Shown piece by piece: positions 17,305-21,706 of a stretch of 64,000 nt of DNA. Source of the stretch: an uncultured Bacteroidota bacterium (GTDB lineage Bacteria; Bacteroidota; Bacteroidia; Bacteroidales; B18-G4). The position numbers and the translations under genes are program-made. Under the pieces are notes generated by a model, which had not been told where the DNA came from, did no database searches, and was given only the letters and a program-made list of their open reading frames with translations. The DNA lies in NCBI GenBank assembly GCA_963793485.1, contig CAWCAB010000002.1, forward strand, positions 1,061,055-1,125,054. The letters run 5' to 3'. Every line of letters starts with the position of its first letter. The stretch's first letter is position 1.

Positions 17305-17764
17305 GTTTTTTCATGTTAAAGGTCTGTGAATCGCCATCAGTCTTGCCGGAAATGACTACTACCAATGAGTCTCCTCTAAAATCGTATCGGATCTTAGTTG
17401 GATAATCATGCTCGCGGTTTTCAAAGATCAAAAGAGAATTATCCGAATCAGTCAGGGTGTAAATAATCATTTCACCATTATTTTGATCCAGAACTGTGGC
17501 ACCATAGTACATATGATTATTACTTATGAATATGGATAATTCTTCCATGACCCTCAATTCACCGTCCTTACTGACCCAGCCTTTTCCCTTCATAAGGGTA
17601 TCATTTAGCTGTATCCATTCTTCACCCGCGTACCCATTTTTAGTGCCGGTTTCCCATTTGCCTTGCATCAAAGTCAGCCAGACTGGAAATTCTAACTTCG
17701 GTGAAGTGCATGATGAAATAATGATTACTGAGAGTATTATGAAAAGTTGCCAGGATCTATTCAT
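17297..17764 (-). CDS. DUF6265-like lipoprotein
   Basis: Start overlaps pgi stop; lipobox ISSC; GKW, EEW, FENREHDYPTKIRY. Confidence 0.75.
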   Translation of the reverse strand: MNRSWQLFIILSVIIISSCTSPKLEFPVWLTLMQGKWETGTKNGYAGEEWIQLNDTLMKGKGWVSKDGELRVMEELSIFISNNHMYYGATVLDQNNGEMIIYTLTDSDNSLLIFENREHDYPTKIRYDFRGDSLVVVISGKTDGDSQTFNMKKHE

Positions 17765-19106
17765 GCTTGATGCGCTTTTTAATGGCTTTGCTTTCTTCCT
17801 CATATCCGGGTTTCCCCAGCAGGGCGAACATATTTTTTTTATAATCCTCCACTCCGGGTTGATCAAATGGGTTCACACCAAGTATATAGCCACTTACTGC
17901 GCAGGCCATTTCATAGAAATAGATCAACTGCCCCAGGTAGTATTCGTTCACCTCCGGTATGCTGATCCTGATATTGGGAACACCGCCATCTACATGGGCG
18001 ATCAGGGTACCCAGTTCAGCCATCTTGTTTACCTGGTCGAACTTCCGCCCCGCGAGGTAATTTAACTTATCGGCATTGACTTCATCTTTCGGAACAAGCA
18101 AGGTCTTCTTGGTTTTTTCTACAGATATTACAGTTTCAAAGATGTTTCTCAGCCCATCCTGAATGTACTGTCCCATGGAGTGAAGGTCGGTAGTGAATCC
18201 TACCCCTGCCGGGAAGATCCCTTTATTTTCCTTGCCTTCACTTTCACCATACAACTGCTTCCACCATTCAGTCATGTAATAGAGGTTGGGGAGGTAGCTC
18301 ACCATGATCTCTGTGGTTTTTCCCTTTCTGTACAATGCATTCCGCGCCGCGGCATAGAGCATCACAGGGTTGGAATCCATATTGTCGTCACTCAACACCA
18401 GCTTCCTCATATCCACAGCACCCCTGACCAGTTTCTTGATGTTGAAACCAGCAGCAGCAATGGGCAGCAATCCCACCGGTGTTAAAACAGAATATCGTCC
18501 GCCTACATCATCAGGCACTACGTAAGTATCATAGCCTTCCTTGTCAGCTACTTCTTTGAGTGCGCCTTTTTCCTTATCTGTGATCGCGATTATCCTTGAT
18601 GGGGCTTCGTCTTTTCCATATTTCTCTTCCAGGTGATTTTTTAACACCCTGAAGGCAATGGCAGGCTCAGTGGTGGTCCCCGATTTGGAAATGACTACGA
18701 CGGAATAATTTTTCTGATCGAGCACCTCTAAAAGTTCTGTGAGGTAATCTTCACCAATATTTTGCCCGGCATAGAGTACCAATGGTGACCTCCCGGGTAG
18801 CAATGCCGCAAACTGATGATTCAAGGCATCGATCACAGCCCTTGCACCCAGGTATGAGCCGCCAATGCCTGTAACTACAATGATCTCAGAAAAACCGGCA
18901 AGTTTTTTTGCACTTTCCTGTATGGAATTCAAAAAACCCTCATCCAGCTGGGTTGGAAGATCGACCCATCCCAGGAAATCATTTCCTTTTCCTGTTTTAT
19001 CTTTTAGTGATTGAATATGCTGTTTGATCTCATTGCTGAAGGCAAACACTTCTTCTTTGGAAACAAAGCCCTTGAGGTGATCTATGTTTACGGTGATGTT
19101 CTTCAT
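17757..19106 (-). CDS. pgi: Glucose-6-phosphate isomerase
   Basis: GIGGSYLG, SKSGTTTE, VGGRYSV, QLYGESEGK, NPFDQPGVE. Confidence 0.97.
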   Translation of the reverse strand: MKNITVNIDHLKGFVSKEEVFAFSNEIKQHIQSLKDKTGKGNDFLGWVDLPTQLDEGFLNSIQESAKKLAGFSEIIVVTGIGGSYLGARAVIDALNHQFAALLPGRSPLVLYAGQNIGEDYLTELLEVLDQKNYSVVVISKSGTTTEPAIAFRVLKNHLEEKYGKDEAPSRIIAITDKEKGALKEVADKEGYDTYVVPDDVGGRYSVLTPVGLLPIAAAGFNIKKLVRGAVDMRKLVLSDDNMDSNPVMLYAAARNALYRKGKTTEIMVSYLPNLYYMTEWWKQLYGESEGKENKGIFPAGVGFTTDLHSMGQYIQDGLRNIFETVISVEKTKKTLLVPKDEVNADKLNYLAGRKFDQVNKMAELGTLIAHVDGGVPNIRISIPEVNEYYLGQLIYFYEMACAVSGYILGVNPFDQPGVEDYKKNMFALLGKPGYEEESKAIKKRIKHE

Positions 19107-19338
19107 GATCTTATTAGTTTGATTGCTGCGAAATTACAATAAAGCTGAGTATTGATGATTAATTGATTGTTAATTATTTCCCCTGGCGCAGTCAGGAGAG
19201 GACCGAAGAACAAAGACCGAAAAACAGAACAGCGAAAGCTATATTTCAGATAAGGACATAAACAAATAAATAGGGGAGAGGAGAGTAACTTTATTTTGAA
19301 AAAGAAAAAGCACTTAAGAAATAAGCTGAAGGGCAAAT

Positions 19339-19419
19339 GATTTAATCAGTTCAACTAGCAAAACTAGGTCAACCGATTCAACTGATTTAACCAGCTCAAC
19401 TAATTTAACTGATTCAACA
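19339..19419. repeat. Nine degenerate 9-mer tandem repeats (around GATTCAACT) within a wider 7/8-mer mosaic at 19200-19500
   Basis: GATTTAATC AGTTCAACT AGCAAAACT AGGTCAACC GATTCAACT GATTTAACC AGCTCAACT AATTTAACT GATTCAACA. Confidence 0.85.
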
Positions 19420-19519
19420 GAATGCAGAAGGAGAAGGCGAATGGCGAAAGAGCAAGGAGATATTTGAAAGTAGATTGTAAAAGGCGATAGAAGATAGAAG
19501 AACTGTGCCCGGGGGGCAC

Positions 19520-19555
19520 AAAAAAACAGCGCGGCTTTACCGGACCGCGCTGTTT
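19520..19555 (-). terminator. Intrinsic terminator of candidate sRNA
   Basis: Minus strand AAACAGCGCGG-TCCGGTAAAG-CCGCGCTG followed by 7 T. Confidence 0.85.
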
Positions 19556-19644
19556 AAACCAAAAACCAAAATCATGAAATAAAAAATTTTTGCACAATGT
19601 TTAACTAACATGAAATATGGTACGTATAAATTGGATTAGCATCC
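19520..19644 (-). ncRNA. Candidate trans-acting sRNA divergent from rprXY
   Basis: TACTTTTG -7 box (19649-19656) and a terminator bracket about 125 nt with no credible ORF; contains two anti-ATGAAA segments. Confidence 0.55.
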
Positions 19645-19678
19645 GAAACAAAAGTACTCCTAATATTATGCCATAGAT

Positions 19679-19713
19679 GTTAACAACTGCTAATGAACGT
19701 TAAAAAAAGTTAA
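19679..19713. promoter_or_regulatory. Four direct repeats G(T/C)TAA at 10-bp spacing, putative OmpR-family (RprY) binding site
   Basis: GTTAA 19679, GCTAA 19689, GTTAA 19699, GTTAA 19709, between divergent -7 boxes (19649-19656 minus; TAAATTTG 19741-19748 plus). Confidence 0.65.
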
Positions 19714-19753
19714 AGCAAATTGATTATCCGCATCATAGCATAAATTTGTCTGA

Positions 19754-21001
19754 GTGAATAGAAAGATAATCATATTCATTATAGGCCTGATGAGCATGGC
19801 CTTACTGGCACTTGTATTCGTGCAGGTTTACTGGATCAACAATGCTATGATGGTTCGGCAGGCTAACTTCGTGAGATCTGTAAATGAAGCAGTAGACGGG
19901 CTTGTGCTCAGGCTTGAAAAGTCAAACCGGGCAAGGATACCTGAAAACCTTGAGCTGATCGAGAACAGGCTCACCTATAATCTTATCGATTCCCTGCTCA
20001 GGGATGAACTCAACAAAAAAAGCATTTCAGCCAAATTCCAGTTCGGAGTATTCAGCACGGATCGGGGCAAGATGGTACTTCAGACAGAAATGAGCAATCC
20101 TGCAATCCTGCTGGAAAAAGCCTATGCCTTCACACTCTTTCCGGGCGATCTCCTGGAGGAACCGGATTATCTGATGCTCTACTTCCCTAACGAAAGAGGA
20201 TTTTTGATTGGCCAGATGGCTGGCCTGCTGGTGATCTCTATCGCACTTATCCTGGTCATCATTTTTTCTTTTACCTATACAGTGCTTACTATCTACAGGC
20301 AAAAGCGTATTTCAGAGATGAAGAATGATTTCATCAACAACATGACCCATGAATTCAAAACCCCGATCTCTACTATATCCCTGGCATGCCAGGCATTGAA
20401 AGATGAGGATGTGGCCAAGACCAATGAGATCTATGATGCTTATATCGGGGTGATCAGTGAAGAAAATGTTCGCCTGGGAGCCATGGCAGAAAAGATACTG
20501 CAATCGGCGGTGCTTGAAAAGAAACAAATAGAGCTGAATAAAGAATGGTTTGATGTTCACAGCGTGATCACCGATGTAGTGAATAAGATCGGCATACAGG
20601 TGCAGATAAAGGATGGAAAGATTGAGACAGACTTTAATGCGGAACCATCGGAGATTTTTGCTGATAAAATACATTTTACCAACCTTATCAATAACCTGCT
20701 CGATAATGCCAATAAATATACACCCCAGAAACCAAGGATACTGGTGAGCACGAAGAACGTCCAGACCGGCATCATGATCTCCATTGAGGATAATGGTATC
20801 GGCATCAGCAAGAAGAATCAGAAGAAAATATTTGAAAAACTATATCGGGTACCCATGGGAGACCTGCACGACTTCAAAGGTTTCGGGTTGGGTTTGAGCT
20901 ATGTGAAGGTGATGCTGGAATACCACAAAGGAAGCATCAGCCTGGAGAGCGAGTTGAAAAAAGGAACAAAATTTGACGTATTTTTACCCTACGAATCATA
21001 A
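19754..21001 (+). CDS. rprX: Sensor histidine kinase (RprX-like)
   Basis: Two TM helices; FINNMTHEFKTP H-box, NLLDNANKY, DNGIGI, GFGLGL; GTG start. Confidence 0.88.
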   Translation: MNRKIIIFIIGLMSMALLALVFVQVYWINNAMMVRQANFVRSVNEAVDGLVLRLEKSNRARIPENLELIENRLTYNLIDSLLRDELNKKSISAKFQFGVFSTDRGKMVLQTEMSNPAILLEKAYAFTLFPGDLLEEPDYLMLYFPNERGFLIGQMAGLLVISIALILVIIFSFTYTVLTIYRQKRISEMKNDFINNMTHEFKTPISTISLACQALKDEDVAKTNEIYDAYIGVISEENVRLGAMAEKILQSAVLEKKQIELNKEWFDVHSVITDVVNKIGIQVQIKDGKIETDFNAEPSEIFADKIHFTNLINNLLDNANKYTPQKPRILVSTKNVQTGIMISIEDNGIGISKKNQKKIFEKLYRVPMGDLHDFKGFGLGLSYVKVMLEYHKGSISLESELKKGTKFDVFLPYES

Positions 21002-21010
21002 TAGAATACT

Positions 21011-21706
21011 ATGGATAATGAAAAAGTAAAGGTACTGCTGGCCGAGGATGACAAGAATCTTGGAACCATTCTCAAATCATACCTTGAAGCCAAGGGCTAT
21101 CCCGCAACACTATGTGTGAATGGGCAGGAGGCTTTTCTTGAATTCAATAAGAATGAGTACGACTTCTGTATAGTAGATGTGATGATGCCCGTTAAGGACG
21201 GTTTCACTCTCGCCAAGGAGATACGCAACATTGACAAGAAAGTGCCTATCCTTTTTCTCACTGCGAAATCCATGCAGGAGGACAAACTGAAAGGCTTCGA
21301 AATCGGTGCCGACGATTATCTGACCAAGCCTTTCAATATGGAAGAACTCCTGGCACGTATGGAAGCCATCCTGCGAAGGAGTTTTACCGAGAATGAGGAG
21401 CCTGAAGGGGATACCTATGAACTAGGCAAGATGGAGTTCAACTTCGTGCGCCAGACCCTGAGCGCGGGCAAGGAGGAGGTTAAACTTACCTCCAAGGAAG
21501 CAGCTCTGCTCAAATTACTATGCCAGAACCTCAATGAGGTTGTCGACCGCTCTGTGGCCCTGAACAAGATCTGGCTCGATGATTCATACTTCAATGCCCG
21601 CAGTATGGATGTGTATATCACCAAACTCAGGAAATATCTGAAAATGGATCCAAGCGTGGAACTGCTAAATGTTCATGGTGTAGGCTTCAAGCTGGTTACC
21701 CGCTAA
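21011..21706 (+). CDS. rprY: OmpR-family response regulator (RprY-like)
   Basis: LLAEDD, DVMMP, GADDYLTKPF, YFNARSMDVYITKLRK. Confidence 0.92.
   Translation: MDNEKVKVLLAEDDKNLGTILKSYLEAKGYPATLCVNGQEAFLEFNKNEYDFCIVDVMMPVKDGFTLAKEIRNIDKKVPILFLTAKSMQEDKLKGFEIGADDYLTKPFNMEELLARMEAILRRSFTENEEPEGDTYELGKMEFNFVRQTLSAGKEEVKLTSKEAALLKLLCQNLNEVVDRSVALNKIWLDDSYFNARSMDVYITKLRKYLKMDPSVELLNVHGVGFKLVTR

Follow-up and report, generated by a model that had tools for sequence, protein, structure and literature searches.

The 64,000-nt stretch analysed here (the window) contains a 648-bp gap between pgi and the gene for an RprX-type sensor histidine kinase; the surrounding genes were annotated with Pfam (Table 1). 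The N-terminus of the kinase, called rprX below at the gene level, aligns with homologues whose ATG start is the same codon as the GTG used here. The next gene encodes an RprY-type response regulator of the OmpR/PhoB family. In front of rprX lies a −7 promoter box whose end is only 5 nt away from the start codon, which makes a leaderless rprX mRNA probable. The gap also holds the features of a predicted small RNA on the opposite strand and a series of phased boxes.

Table 1. Genes, promoter and terminator signals, and RNA segments at the locus (window coordinates).
Feature	Position	Strand	Remarks
pgi (glucose-6-phosphate isomerase)	17757..19106	−	Pfam PGI
Predicted small RNA, ~125 nt	19517..19643	−	5' end from −7 box, 3' end from terminator T-run
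Intrinsic terminator	19520..19555	−	stem 19524-19555 (12 pairs, 7 G-C), 7-T run 19520-19526
G/U-rich 3' block UUUCAUGAUUUUGGUUUUUGGUUUAA	19554..19579	−	just 5' of terminator
Central antisense block CGUACCA ... UUUCAUGUUAGUUAAACAUUGUGCAA	19590..19624	−	complementary to receptor 5' leader and start codon
5' stem-loop GGAU-loop-AUCC	19633..19644	−	candidate; genus-specific; in the alignment the stem is kept and the loop varies
Small RNA −7 box TACTTTTG	19649..19656	−	TAnnTTTG in 21/21 family homologues, nn variable
Four phased boxes GTTAA, GCTAA, GTTAA, GTTAA	19679..19713	+ (TTAAC on −)	10-bp period
rprX −7 promoter box TAAATTTG	19741..19748	+	conserved as CAAAnnTA in RNA-sense alignment
RprX-type sensor histidine kinase	19754..21001	+	GTG start; HisKA and HATPase_c (Pfam)
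RprY-type OmpR/PhoB-family response regulator	21011..21706	+	Response_reg and Trans_reg_C

A predicted minus-strand transcription unit and its relatives

A preliminary description of this DNA had proposed that a −7 box and a terminator on the minus strand delimit a small RNA, and both signals are present. The invariant letters of the box, TAnnTTTG, are what we take to be the −7 promoter consensus of Bacteroides, and they recur in all five of the distant matches described below. The terminator was examined in an alignment (A1) of 20 sequences, from which a spurious BLAST match (L025) was omitted; a further sequence (L020) was left out of both A1 and the covariance model R1 because its 3' end deviates beside a contig end. 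The terminator helix is paired in 99.5% of the 209 cells, and 4 of 11 pairs have changed on both sides, a figure that none of 500 shuffles matched. Two terminator-like sites were found against 0.8 expected. The fold of the single sequence is mildly better than that of shuffles (z −2.45; 3 of 200 as good), and in other genera GUACG...CGUAC stands in place of the 5' stem-loop. Conservation starts exactly at the T-run and spans the small RNA, its promoter and the boxes; in two other genera of the family this non-coding stretch is better conserved than the start of rprX.

The preliminary description had also held that the segment carries no real ORF. This calls for a qualification, as a mechanical 65-aa ORF with a TTG start (19400-19597, minus strand) overlaps the 3' part of the small RNA, but no conserved ORF was found on either strand in 24 homologues, and frames are shifted between genera by 1- and 2-nt indels. 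Novelty with respect to Rfam, another point put forward for checking, held up in a search of positions 18900-20000 against Rfam 15 at E up to 10. It returned 13 matches, all far below the gathering thresholds, and the best of them (rteR, RF04181) scored 25.0 bits against a threshold of 72 (E 0.27) and lay mostly within the terminator hairpin. Sequence comparison thus supports a predicted independent minus-strand transcription unit, non-coding and framed by a TAnnTTTG promoter and a terminator that covaries.

Its conservation in relatives, named beforehand as a test, was followed with BLAST and with R1. The 61 related genomes searched with BLAST included 22 further members of the family, a group of three genera, and each of the 22 had the region; 20 of the matches were long and one more (L022) was cut by a contig end. 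In the 38 other families, BLAST gave only two short, spurious matches. Of 23 family genomes, 21 contained exactly one R1 match each; completeness is 75% and 84% in the two that had none. Five more copies, from five other families, came from 151 genomes sampled evenly across the order. All five have the TAnnTTTG box and four have four phased TTAAC-type boxes; four are divergent from an rprX-like kinase gene and one from an RprY-like regulator gene. In addition, 80 named rprX loci across the Bacteroidota were collected via an alignment of RprX proteins. R1 gave 10 matches in nine Bacteroidales or Marinilabiliales-type loci of this set, in each case upstream of the kinase gene and on the other strand from it, and two further matches elsewhere. 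The expectation of conservation was therefore borne out both within the family and in other Bacteroidales families.

Phased boxes shared with rprX

Just as first described, an array of four plus-strand G(T/C)TAA boxes lies between the divergent promoters of the small RNA and rprX and is common to both; the boxes, with starts at 19679, 19689, 19699 and 19709, follow each other at exactly 10 bp. With at most one mismatch, the four-box pattern occurs once in the 3.47-Mb genome and the reversed pattern does not occur. A looser search for arrays of four GTTAA words (10- or 11-bp spacing, at most two mismatches) gave seven places in the genome, whereas three control words matched in composition gave 0, 1 and 0. 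The three paralogous RprXY-like operons account for three of the seven, each with an array in front.

The distance from the proximal box to the −7 box is 22 nt for the small RNA and 27 nt for rprX, and both distances recur in other RprX-type loci. The combination TTAAC-22 nt-TAnnTTTG was found on the divergent strand in 27 of the 80 loci (28 occurrences), throughout the phylum. Other spacings gave 0-3 occurrences, except for a second peak of 11 at 33 nt, in our reading the box that follows one period upstream; the opposite strand had no peak. On the kinase strand, GTTAA-27 nt-TAnnTTTG showed a peak of 29. The sequence of the spacer between proximal box and −7 box is free and its length is fixed. 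Scored strictly for four boxes at 10 bp, 26 of the 80 loci reached at least 17/20, compared with a background of 10-12. A 10-11-bp period of direct repeats and a constant distance between them and a promoter are the marks of an OmpR/PhoB-type site, and the rigid 22/27-nt spacing in RprX-type loci argues for direct control by the RprY-type regulator. The array is probably a binding site of this regulator, and the control of the small RNA suggested in the preliminary description finds its support in this comparison across the phylum.

The product of the divergent promoter differs between lineages. Bacteroidales loci have a short RNA that carries a terminator and a G/U-rich 3' block. Two Flavobacteriales loci also have a short terminated RNA, but another one, and a signal-peptide protein takes this place in Cytophagales, Sphingobacteriales and others. 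Two paralogous systems in the genome studied here likewise have a divergent signal-peptide protein in the position of the small RNA.

The best NCBIfam match of the window regulator is RespRegRprY (NF051850, an equivalog model), with 328.8 bits, and the next is PhoB with 183 bits. The curated cut-off of 370 bits for RespRegRprY was not reached by this protein or by its two paralogues (284 and 286 bits), so we call the regulator RprY-type rather than RprY. The RprY of P. gingivalis binds its own promoter according to the accessible part of one report (PMC5706477), and nqrA promoters are bound by RprY according to that of another (PMC7002350). No RprY binding motif is given in the accessible text of two further papers (PMC3646045, PMC6032018). 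The nqrA promoter of the present genome was considered as a link to documented RprY binding and rejected: it has no phased array, its best four-box score being 13/20, a background value. It therefore does not help in assigning the boxes to RprY.

Complementarity to a receptor leader

The central block of the small RNA is complementary to the 5' leader of an unlinked gene outside the window (G000:C2:377777-381490; leader core C2:377740-377779). The gene encodes a protein of 1237 aa with CarboxypepD_reg and Plug domains, which the sources name 'carboxypeptidase-like regulatory domain-containing protein' or 'TonB-dependent receptor'; an NCBIfam search gave no name and no SusC/RagA match. Upstream of it are genes for a Reg_prop/His_kinase sensor and a LytTR regulator, and downstream are genes for a 316-aa unknown protein, a T9SS-sorted protein and a PorV-like protein. 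Orthologues with 54-81% identity occur in 10 of 10 genomes tested. The leader itself is unusually conserved, being present in 21 of 23 family genomes and matched at E <1e-9 in 18 of the 151 genomes of the order sample.

The body of the small RNA was compared with 2809 start regions, taken from −40 to +20 around crude start calls (the first ATG of each long ORF). The receptor leader ranked first, at −37.7 kcal/mol. In the window genome the pairing is interrupted, and in a stricter local alignment the leader ranked 6th-7th of 2809 (score 17.3; mean 9.1, sd 1.9). Orthologous leaders from five of five genomes of the same family gave −33 to −52 kcal/mol. When each RNA was paired with the leader of its own genome, a duplex was found in all 22 genomes that hold both loci (−27.7 to −57.4 kcal/mol), and 960 of 1057 cells in the 49 consensus pairs were standard pairs. 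Six of the 49 pairs change on both sides; the high conservation of both partners keeps this covariation modest.

The pairing extends from about −45 to +6 of the mRNA. Among its segments are ACAUUGUGC/GCACARUGU and CGUACC/GGUAUG, and the latter covers the AUG. These results do not support, in the form proposed from the sequence, two generic anti-start seeds directed at mRNAs of signal-peptide proteins. The two seed strings do exist (UUUCAUGUUAGUUAA at 19615-19601 and UUUCAUGAUUUUGGUUUUUGGUUU at 19579-19556), but the supposed generic seed for 'TTAACTAAC-ATGAAA' turned out to be part of a 35-45-nt block whose complementarity is conserved with one TonB-dependent-receptor-like leader. Nor is the start codon paired by the CAU of UUUCAUG; in the receptor mRNA it is CGUACC (19624-19619) that pairs with it.

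Beyond the family the complementarity is strong in some lineages and at background level in others. Among distant RNA homologues, the duplex of G140 reached −51.8 kcal/mol (100 shuffles: mean −22.1, best −31.8) and that of G071 −46.7 (best shuffle −37.9); G106 was moderate, and in G145 and G102 the complementarity to the leader was no better than in shuffles. In 13 leader-bearing genomes of other families, R1 gave only three weak matches (E 0.015-0.054), so the regions upstream of rprX were inspected by hand in 11 further families. For this set an alignment-score matrix was used, duplex energies of long sequences being noisy. Two of the loci (G031, G092) are cut by contig ends, G046 has only a partial kinase match, G073 has no kinase match, and G160 has no clear RNA upstream of rprX. 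G105 has no small RNA and a diverged leader block; directly divergent from its rprX is a gene with an N-terminus resembling that of pgi. Pairing was at or near background in G079, G144, G157 and G114.

Joint changes of RNA and leader were observed in G010/G014, G147, G063, G071 and G116. In the GCACARUGU:ACAYUGUGC block, A-U, G.U and G-C variants alternate between lineages. G147 and G116 share a joint GCGC/GCGC change (GCGCAAUG:CAUUGCGC), and in G147 the match is near-perfect over 38 nt. In G063 a whole segment has been swapped on both partners (AUCCUUAAAGUAU:AUACUUUAAGGAU), and the leader of this genome is the best partner of its own RNA (18.0, compared with at most 13.0 for foreign leaders). 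A BLAST search with the leader alone matched the RNA locus in antisense in G010, G014 and G106. With the exceptions listed, the comparisons establish a conserved and partly co-varying predicted complementarity of the central 35-45 nt to one unlinked leader. The RNA thus combines what would be looked for in a trans-acting small RNA: a promoter and terminator of its own, no conserved reading frame, and co-varying complementarity to an unlinked mRNA.

The receptor gene, too, is preceded by GTTAA boxes, which are spaced at 11 bp and conserved within the family. They hint at a feed-forward loop, but may just as well be sites for the LytTR regulator encoded beside this gene.

The most conserved part of the small RNA across families is UUUCAUGAUUUUGGUUUUUGGUUU, in the G/U-rich block next to the terminator, and the core of this block, UGGUUUUUGGU, does not vary among the 20 family sequences aligned. 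When scored on the 2809 start regions, the block formed 10 duplexes of −22 kcal/mol or better, compared with 0-2 in 30 shuffles, and its best duplex (−28.6) was better than the best of every shuffle. The duplexes lie from about −20 to +6. The top matches are a 208-aa OMP_b-brl_2 (outer-membrane beta-barrel) protein and a 107-aa membrane protein, and many others start with MK or MR followed by hydrophobic residues. An anti-start function of the 3' segment, as originally envisaged, is consistent with this excess of complementary start regions, but the two sites followed in relatives were poorly kept: that of the beta-barrel gene in two of five relatives within the genus, that of the 107-aa protein in none of three. 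The beta-barrel gene was matched in only one of five genomes outside the genus. The composition of Bacteroidota start regions may contribute to the excess, and the block may be a second seed or a protein-binding site. In the leader alignment, a pairing of the block with AACUUUACCGA was rejected, this stretch being probably not transcribed since it reads better as the −7 box of the receptor gene (TAnnTTTA, variable nn). The candidate box lies 21 nt after a conserved TTTG.

Proposed function, alternatives and known systems

We consider it reasonably probable that the locus encodes a single-copy, trans-acting small RNA of ~125 nt, that an RprY-type regulator drives both this RNA and rprXY, and that the RNA blocks translation of the receptor-like protein. 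In such a circuit the phosphorylated regulator would bind the four-box array and switch on rprXY, by autoregulation, together with the small RNA. The RNA would then pair with the receptor mRNA across the start codon and prevent translation initiation, leading to less receptor-like protein. Synthesis from the genes behind the receptor, including those for the T9SS-sorted and PorV-like proteins, would probably be lowered as well. For the G/U-rich 3' block two roles are conceivable: it may bring further exported-protein genes with A/C-rich start regions into the regulon, or it may be a site for protein binding.

A broader proposal is more tentative. The bidirectional RprY-type module found phylum-wide could be a core envelope-stress circuit whose divergent output switched from a periplasmic protein to a small RNA in the Bacteroidales. 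This RNA would have co-evolved over at least seven families with the leader that heads a T9SS-linked operon, and its G/U block would be a generic anti-start seed in a phylum that has no Shine-Dalgarno sequences.

It is unlikely, but deserves serious weighing, that the RNA exists and has the receptor leader as its pairing partner while the TTAAC array autoregulates rprXY only, the RNA promoter being constitutive or otherwise controlled. Published support exists for the autoregulation only, in the report of RprY binding to its own promoter (accessible part of PMC5706477); moreover, the direct repeats face the two promoters in opposite orientation, and nqrA of this genome has no array. What speaks against such one-sided control is the divergent promoter itself. 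Its 22-nt spacing is fixed over a free spacer sequence in the 27 loci mentioned above, its geometry is the same whether the product is an RNA or a signal-peptide protein, and the RNA promoter of this genus lacks a good −33 TTTG.

That the segment is instead a cis-acting leader or attenuator of pgi, with transcription starting from the TACTTTTG promoter and the terminator deciding on read-through, seems to us quite improbable. The idea draws on the position of pgi as the next gene downstream on the same strand, on similar N-termini behind the RNA in three other loci (L055, L056, L057), and on G105, where a gene with such an N-terminus is directly divergent from rprX and the RNA is missing. However, in L053 the downstream gene is not pgi, the 410-nt spacer between small RNA and pgi is unconserved, and conservation stops at the T-run. 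The terminator is strong, and the consensus fold predicted no alternative to its helix. An attenuator would also leave the co-varying complementarity to an unlinked leader unexplained. We conclude that pgi is not part of the small RNA unit.

Because the plus strand of 19590-19624 is homologous to the receptor leader, the segment might also be a DNA-level element, either an inverted partial copy of the leader or an operator shared for a protein, that has no function as RNA. We regard this as very improbable: the copy is framed, in antisense orientation, by a promoter box and a covarying terminator. Furthermore, one position of CGUACC:GGUAUG is kept as G.U rather than as DNA identity in 19 of 22 genomes, and a second position is U.G in nine of 22. 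A non-palindromic operator of 35-45 bp would, as a matter of general knowledge, be unusual. A small protein (MK-stop or MKYGTYKLD-stop on the plus strand, or one starting MLVKHCAK on the minus strand) can practically be discounted, since the short ATG frames on both strands and the mechanical TTG frame that suggest it change from genus to genus, with indels of 1 and 2 nt altering their length and sequence; they also extend into the terminator, and distant homologues do not have them.

The favoured reading, a regulator-driven small RNA acting on a receptor mRNA, has parallels elsewhere. OmrA and OmrB of Escherichia coli are Hfq-dependent small RNAs whose synthesis depends on EnvZ-OmpR. There too an OmpR/PhoB-family regulator controls RNAs that pair with start regions of mRNAs for TonB-dependent receptors and other outer-membrane proteins, but the RNA described here has no sequence or structural relation to them (no Rfam match), adjoins its two-component operon, and carries a long antisense block of 35-45 nt instead of a short seed. 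MicF of E. coli is divergent from ompC, with phased OmpR sites in the shared intergenic region. It resembles the present case in being a divergently encoded small RNA with phased OmpR-type sites that represses an outer-membrane protein by covering the start region; it differs in that the divergent neighbour here is the regulator operon and not a porin gene, the putative target is TonB-dependent-receptor-like, and there is no homology. In the cpxP-cpxRA system of enterobacteria, an envelope-stress two-component operon has a divergent, regulator-dependent gene. That gene, strongly dependent on the regulator, shares the regulator's sites with the operon, as the divergent gene would here, but the divergent product in Bacteroidales is an RNA and not a periplasmic protein, and the systems are not homologous. 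The signal-peptide proteins encoded divergently in the Cytophagales and Sphingobacteriales loci, and in the two paralogous systems of this genome, occupy the place that cpxP has there. As regards the Hfq dependence of OmrA/OmrB, Bacteroidota are without Hfq in the accessible text of PMC13370968.

The nearest parallels within the phylum are FopS and GibS of Bacteroides thetaiotaomicron. As far as the accessible parts of the reports go, they are transcribed from canonical −7 box promoters and pair around the start codons of SusC-like TonB-dependent transporter mRNAs, blocking translation (PMC11697453, PMC7366714). Start-codon pairing and the type of promoter are thus shared, but the receptor-like target here has no SusC/RagA match in NCBIfam. 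FopS is induced by membrane-assaulting stress via an unknown regulator and forms a 14-copy family of RNAs of about 65-70 nt, in which a 5' seed is followed directly by the terminator (accessible part of PMC11697453); the RNA described here is single-copy in 21 of 21 genomes with a match, about 125 nt long, and has a central antisense block and a 3' G/U block. FopS was not among the matches of the Rfam search at E up to 10, made against a release that may or may not include the deposited FopS model (PMC11697453, accessible part). BatR (BTnc167) was considered as the same RNA and rejected: according to the accessible part of PMC10861873, its synteny (sigma factors, zinc-finger and Lrp/AsnC proteins) does not fit, nor does its 154-nt form with two terminators. 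We read the small RNA as one that would work like OmrA/B, MicF and FopS/GibS and that, by the Rfam search and its single copy per genome, probably belongs to none of those families. The accessible text of the literature searched, including PMC10994844, PMC7366714, PMC11697453, PMC10861873 and PMC13750123, ties no small RNA to RprXY or to the receptor leader. A homologue may already carry a BTnc number, with no function attached, among the 135 intergenic small RNAs of B. thetaiotaomicron, whose supplementary lists were outside the search.

The small RNA has been kept across many Bacteroidales families, along with a candidate regulator site and a co-varying target. To our knowledge, regulator and target are both known for few of the small RNAs of Bacteroidota. 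A review from 2026 describes them, in its accessible part, as mostly narrowly conserved (PMC13750123). If confirmed, the RNA would be a first output for the poorly understood RprXY-type systems, and the array would provide a candidate binding motif for the RprY-type regulator family. It would also offer an entry point to the function of a large and highly conserved outer-membrane receptor-like protein, for which the small RNA looks like a stress-controlled switch.

Promoter and start codon of rprX and its paralogous operons

The rprX mRNA looks leaderless, since the -7 box TAAATTTG stops 5 nt ahead of the GTG start codon. Alignment of homologues showed either ATG or GTG as start codon at the equivalent position, with the distance to the -7 box unchanged. 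Two RprXY-like two-component operons (loci L191 and L192) are present elsewhere in the same genome, and each is preceded by a perfect GTTAA x4 array with a spacing of 11-10-11. At these loci, the place taken in the window by the candidate small RNA, which is divergent from rprX, is occupied by divergent signal-peptide proteins of 271 aa and 122 aa, respectively.

Coordinates of the rprX start region, the paralogous operons and the predicted target gene context (G000, the window's own genome; C1 and C2, its contigs)
Feature	Position	Strand	Remark
rprX -7 box TAAATTTG and GTG start	window 19741-19756	+	
RprXY-like two-component operon, L191	G000:C1:532249-535731		outside window
RprXY-like two-component operon, L192	G000:C1:1382577-1385011		outside window
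Predicted target gene context (L138, L158, L159)	G000:C2:373032-386850		

Other array-linked modules and sequence 3' of the terminator

Another perfect GTTAA x4 array lies outside the window on the minus strand (G000:C2:about 522150-522390), followed by a short stretch with a G+C hairpin and a T-run at its end; this may be a second small RNA driven by the array. In a named MAG locus (L065, about 1857-2243), the covariance model of the RNA matches twice and the box array occurs twice, arranged in tandem on the upstream side of a single rprX-type gene, as if the RNA module had been duplicated locally.

Immediately 3' of the terminator T-run, a second hairpin, GUGCCCCCCGGGCAC, is found on the minus strand (window 19503-19521). 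A hairpin also follows the T-run in L003, L004, L005 and L007, with differing stem sequences. Just past the terminator, a 22-nt word (window 19481-19502) has copies of 100% identity on several contigs of relatives (G003, G012, G011, G006 and G004) and looks like a short dispersed repeat. In the unconserved spacer between terminator and pgi, a TCAAC..ATTTAAC-type unit is repeated imperfectly in direct orientation (window 19340-19420), and similar simple repeats come after the RNA in some relatives (L008, L071 and L078).

Neighbourhood of the predicted target gene

The predicted target gene, which encodes a TonB-dependent-receptor-like protein, is preceded by one gene for a Reg_prop/Y_Y_Y histidine kinase and another for a LytTR regulator. 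Downstream are encoded a 316-aa unknown protein, a 1096-aa T9SS C-terminal-sorting protein and a PorV-like protein. The receptor-like target protein may be part of a T9SS-linked surface complex.
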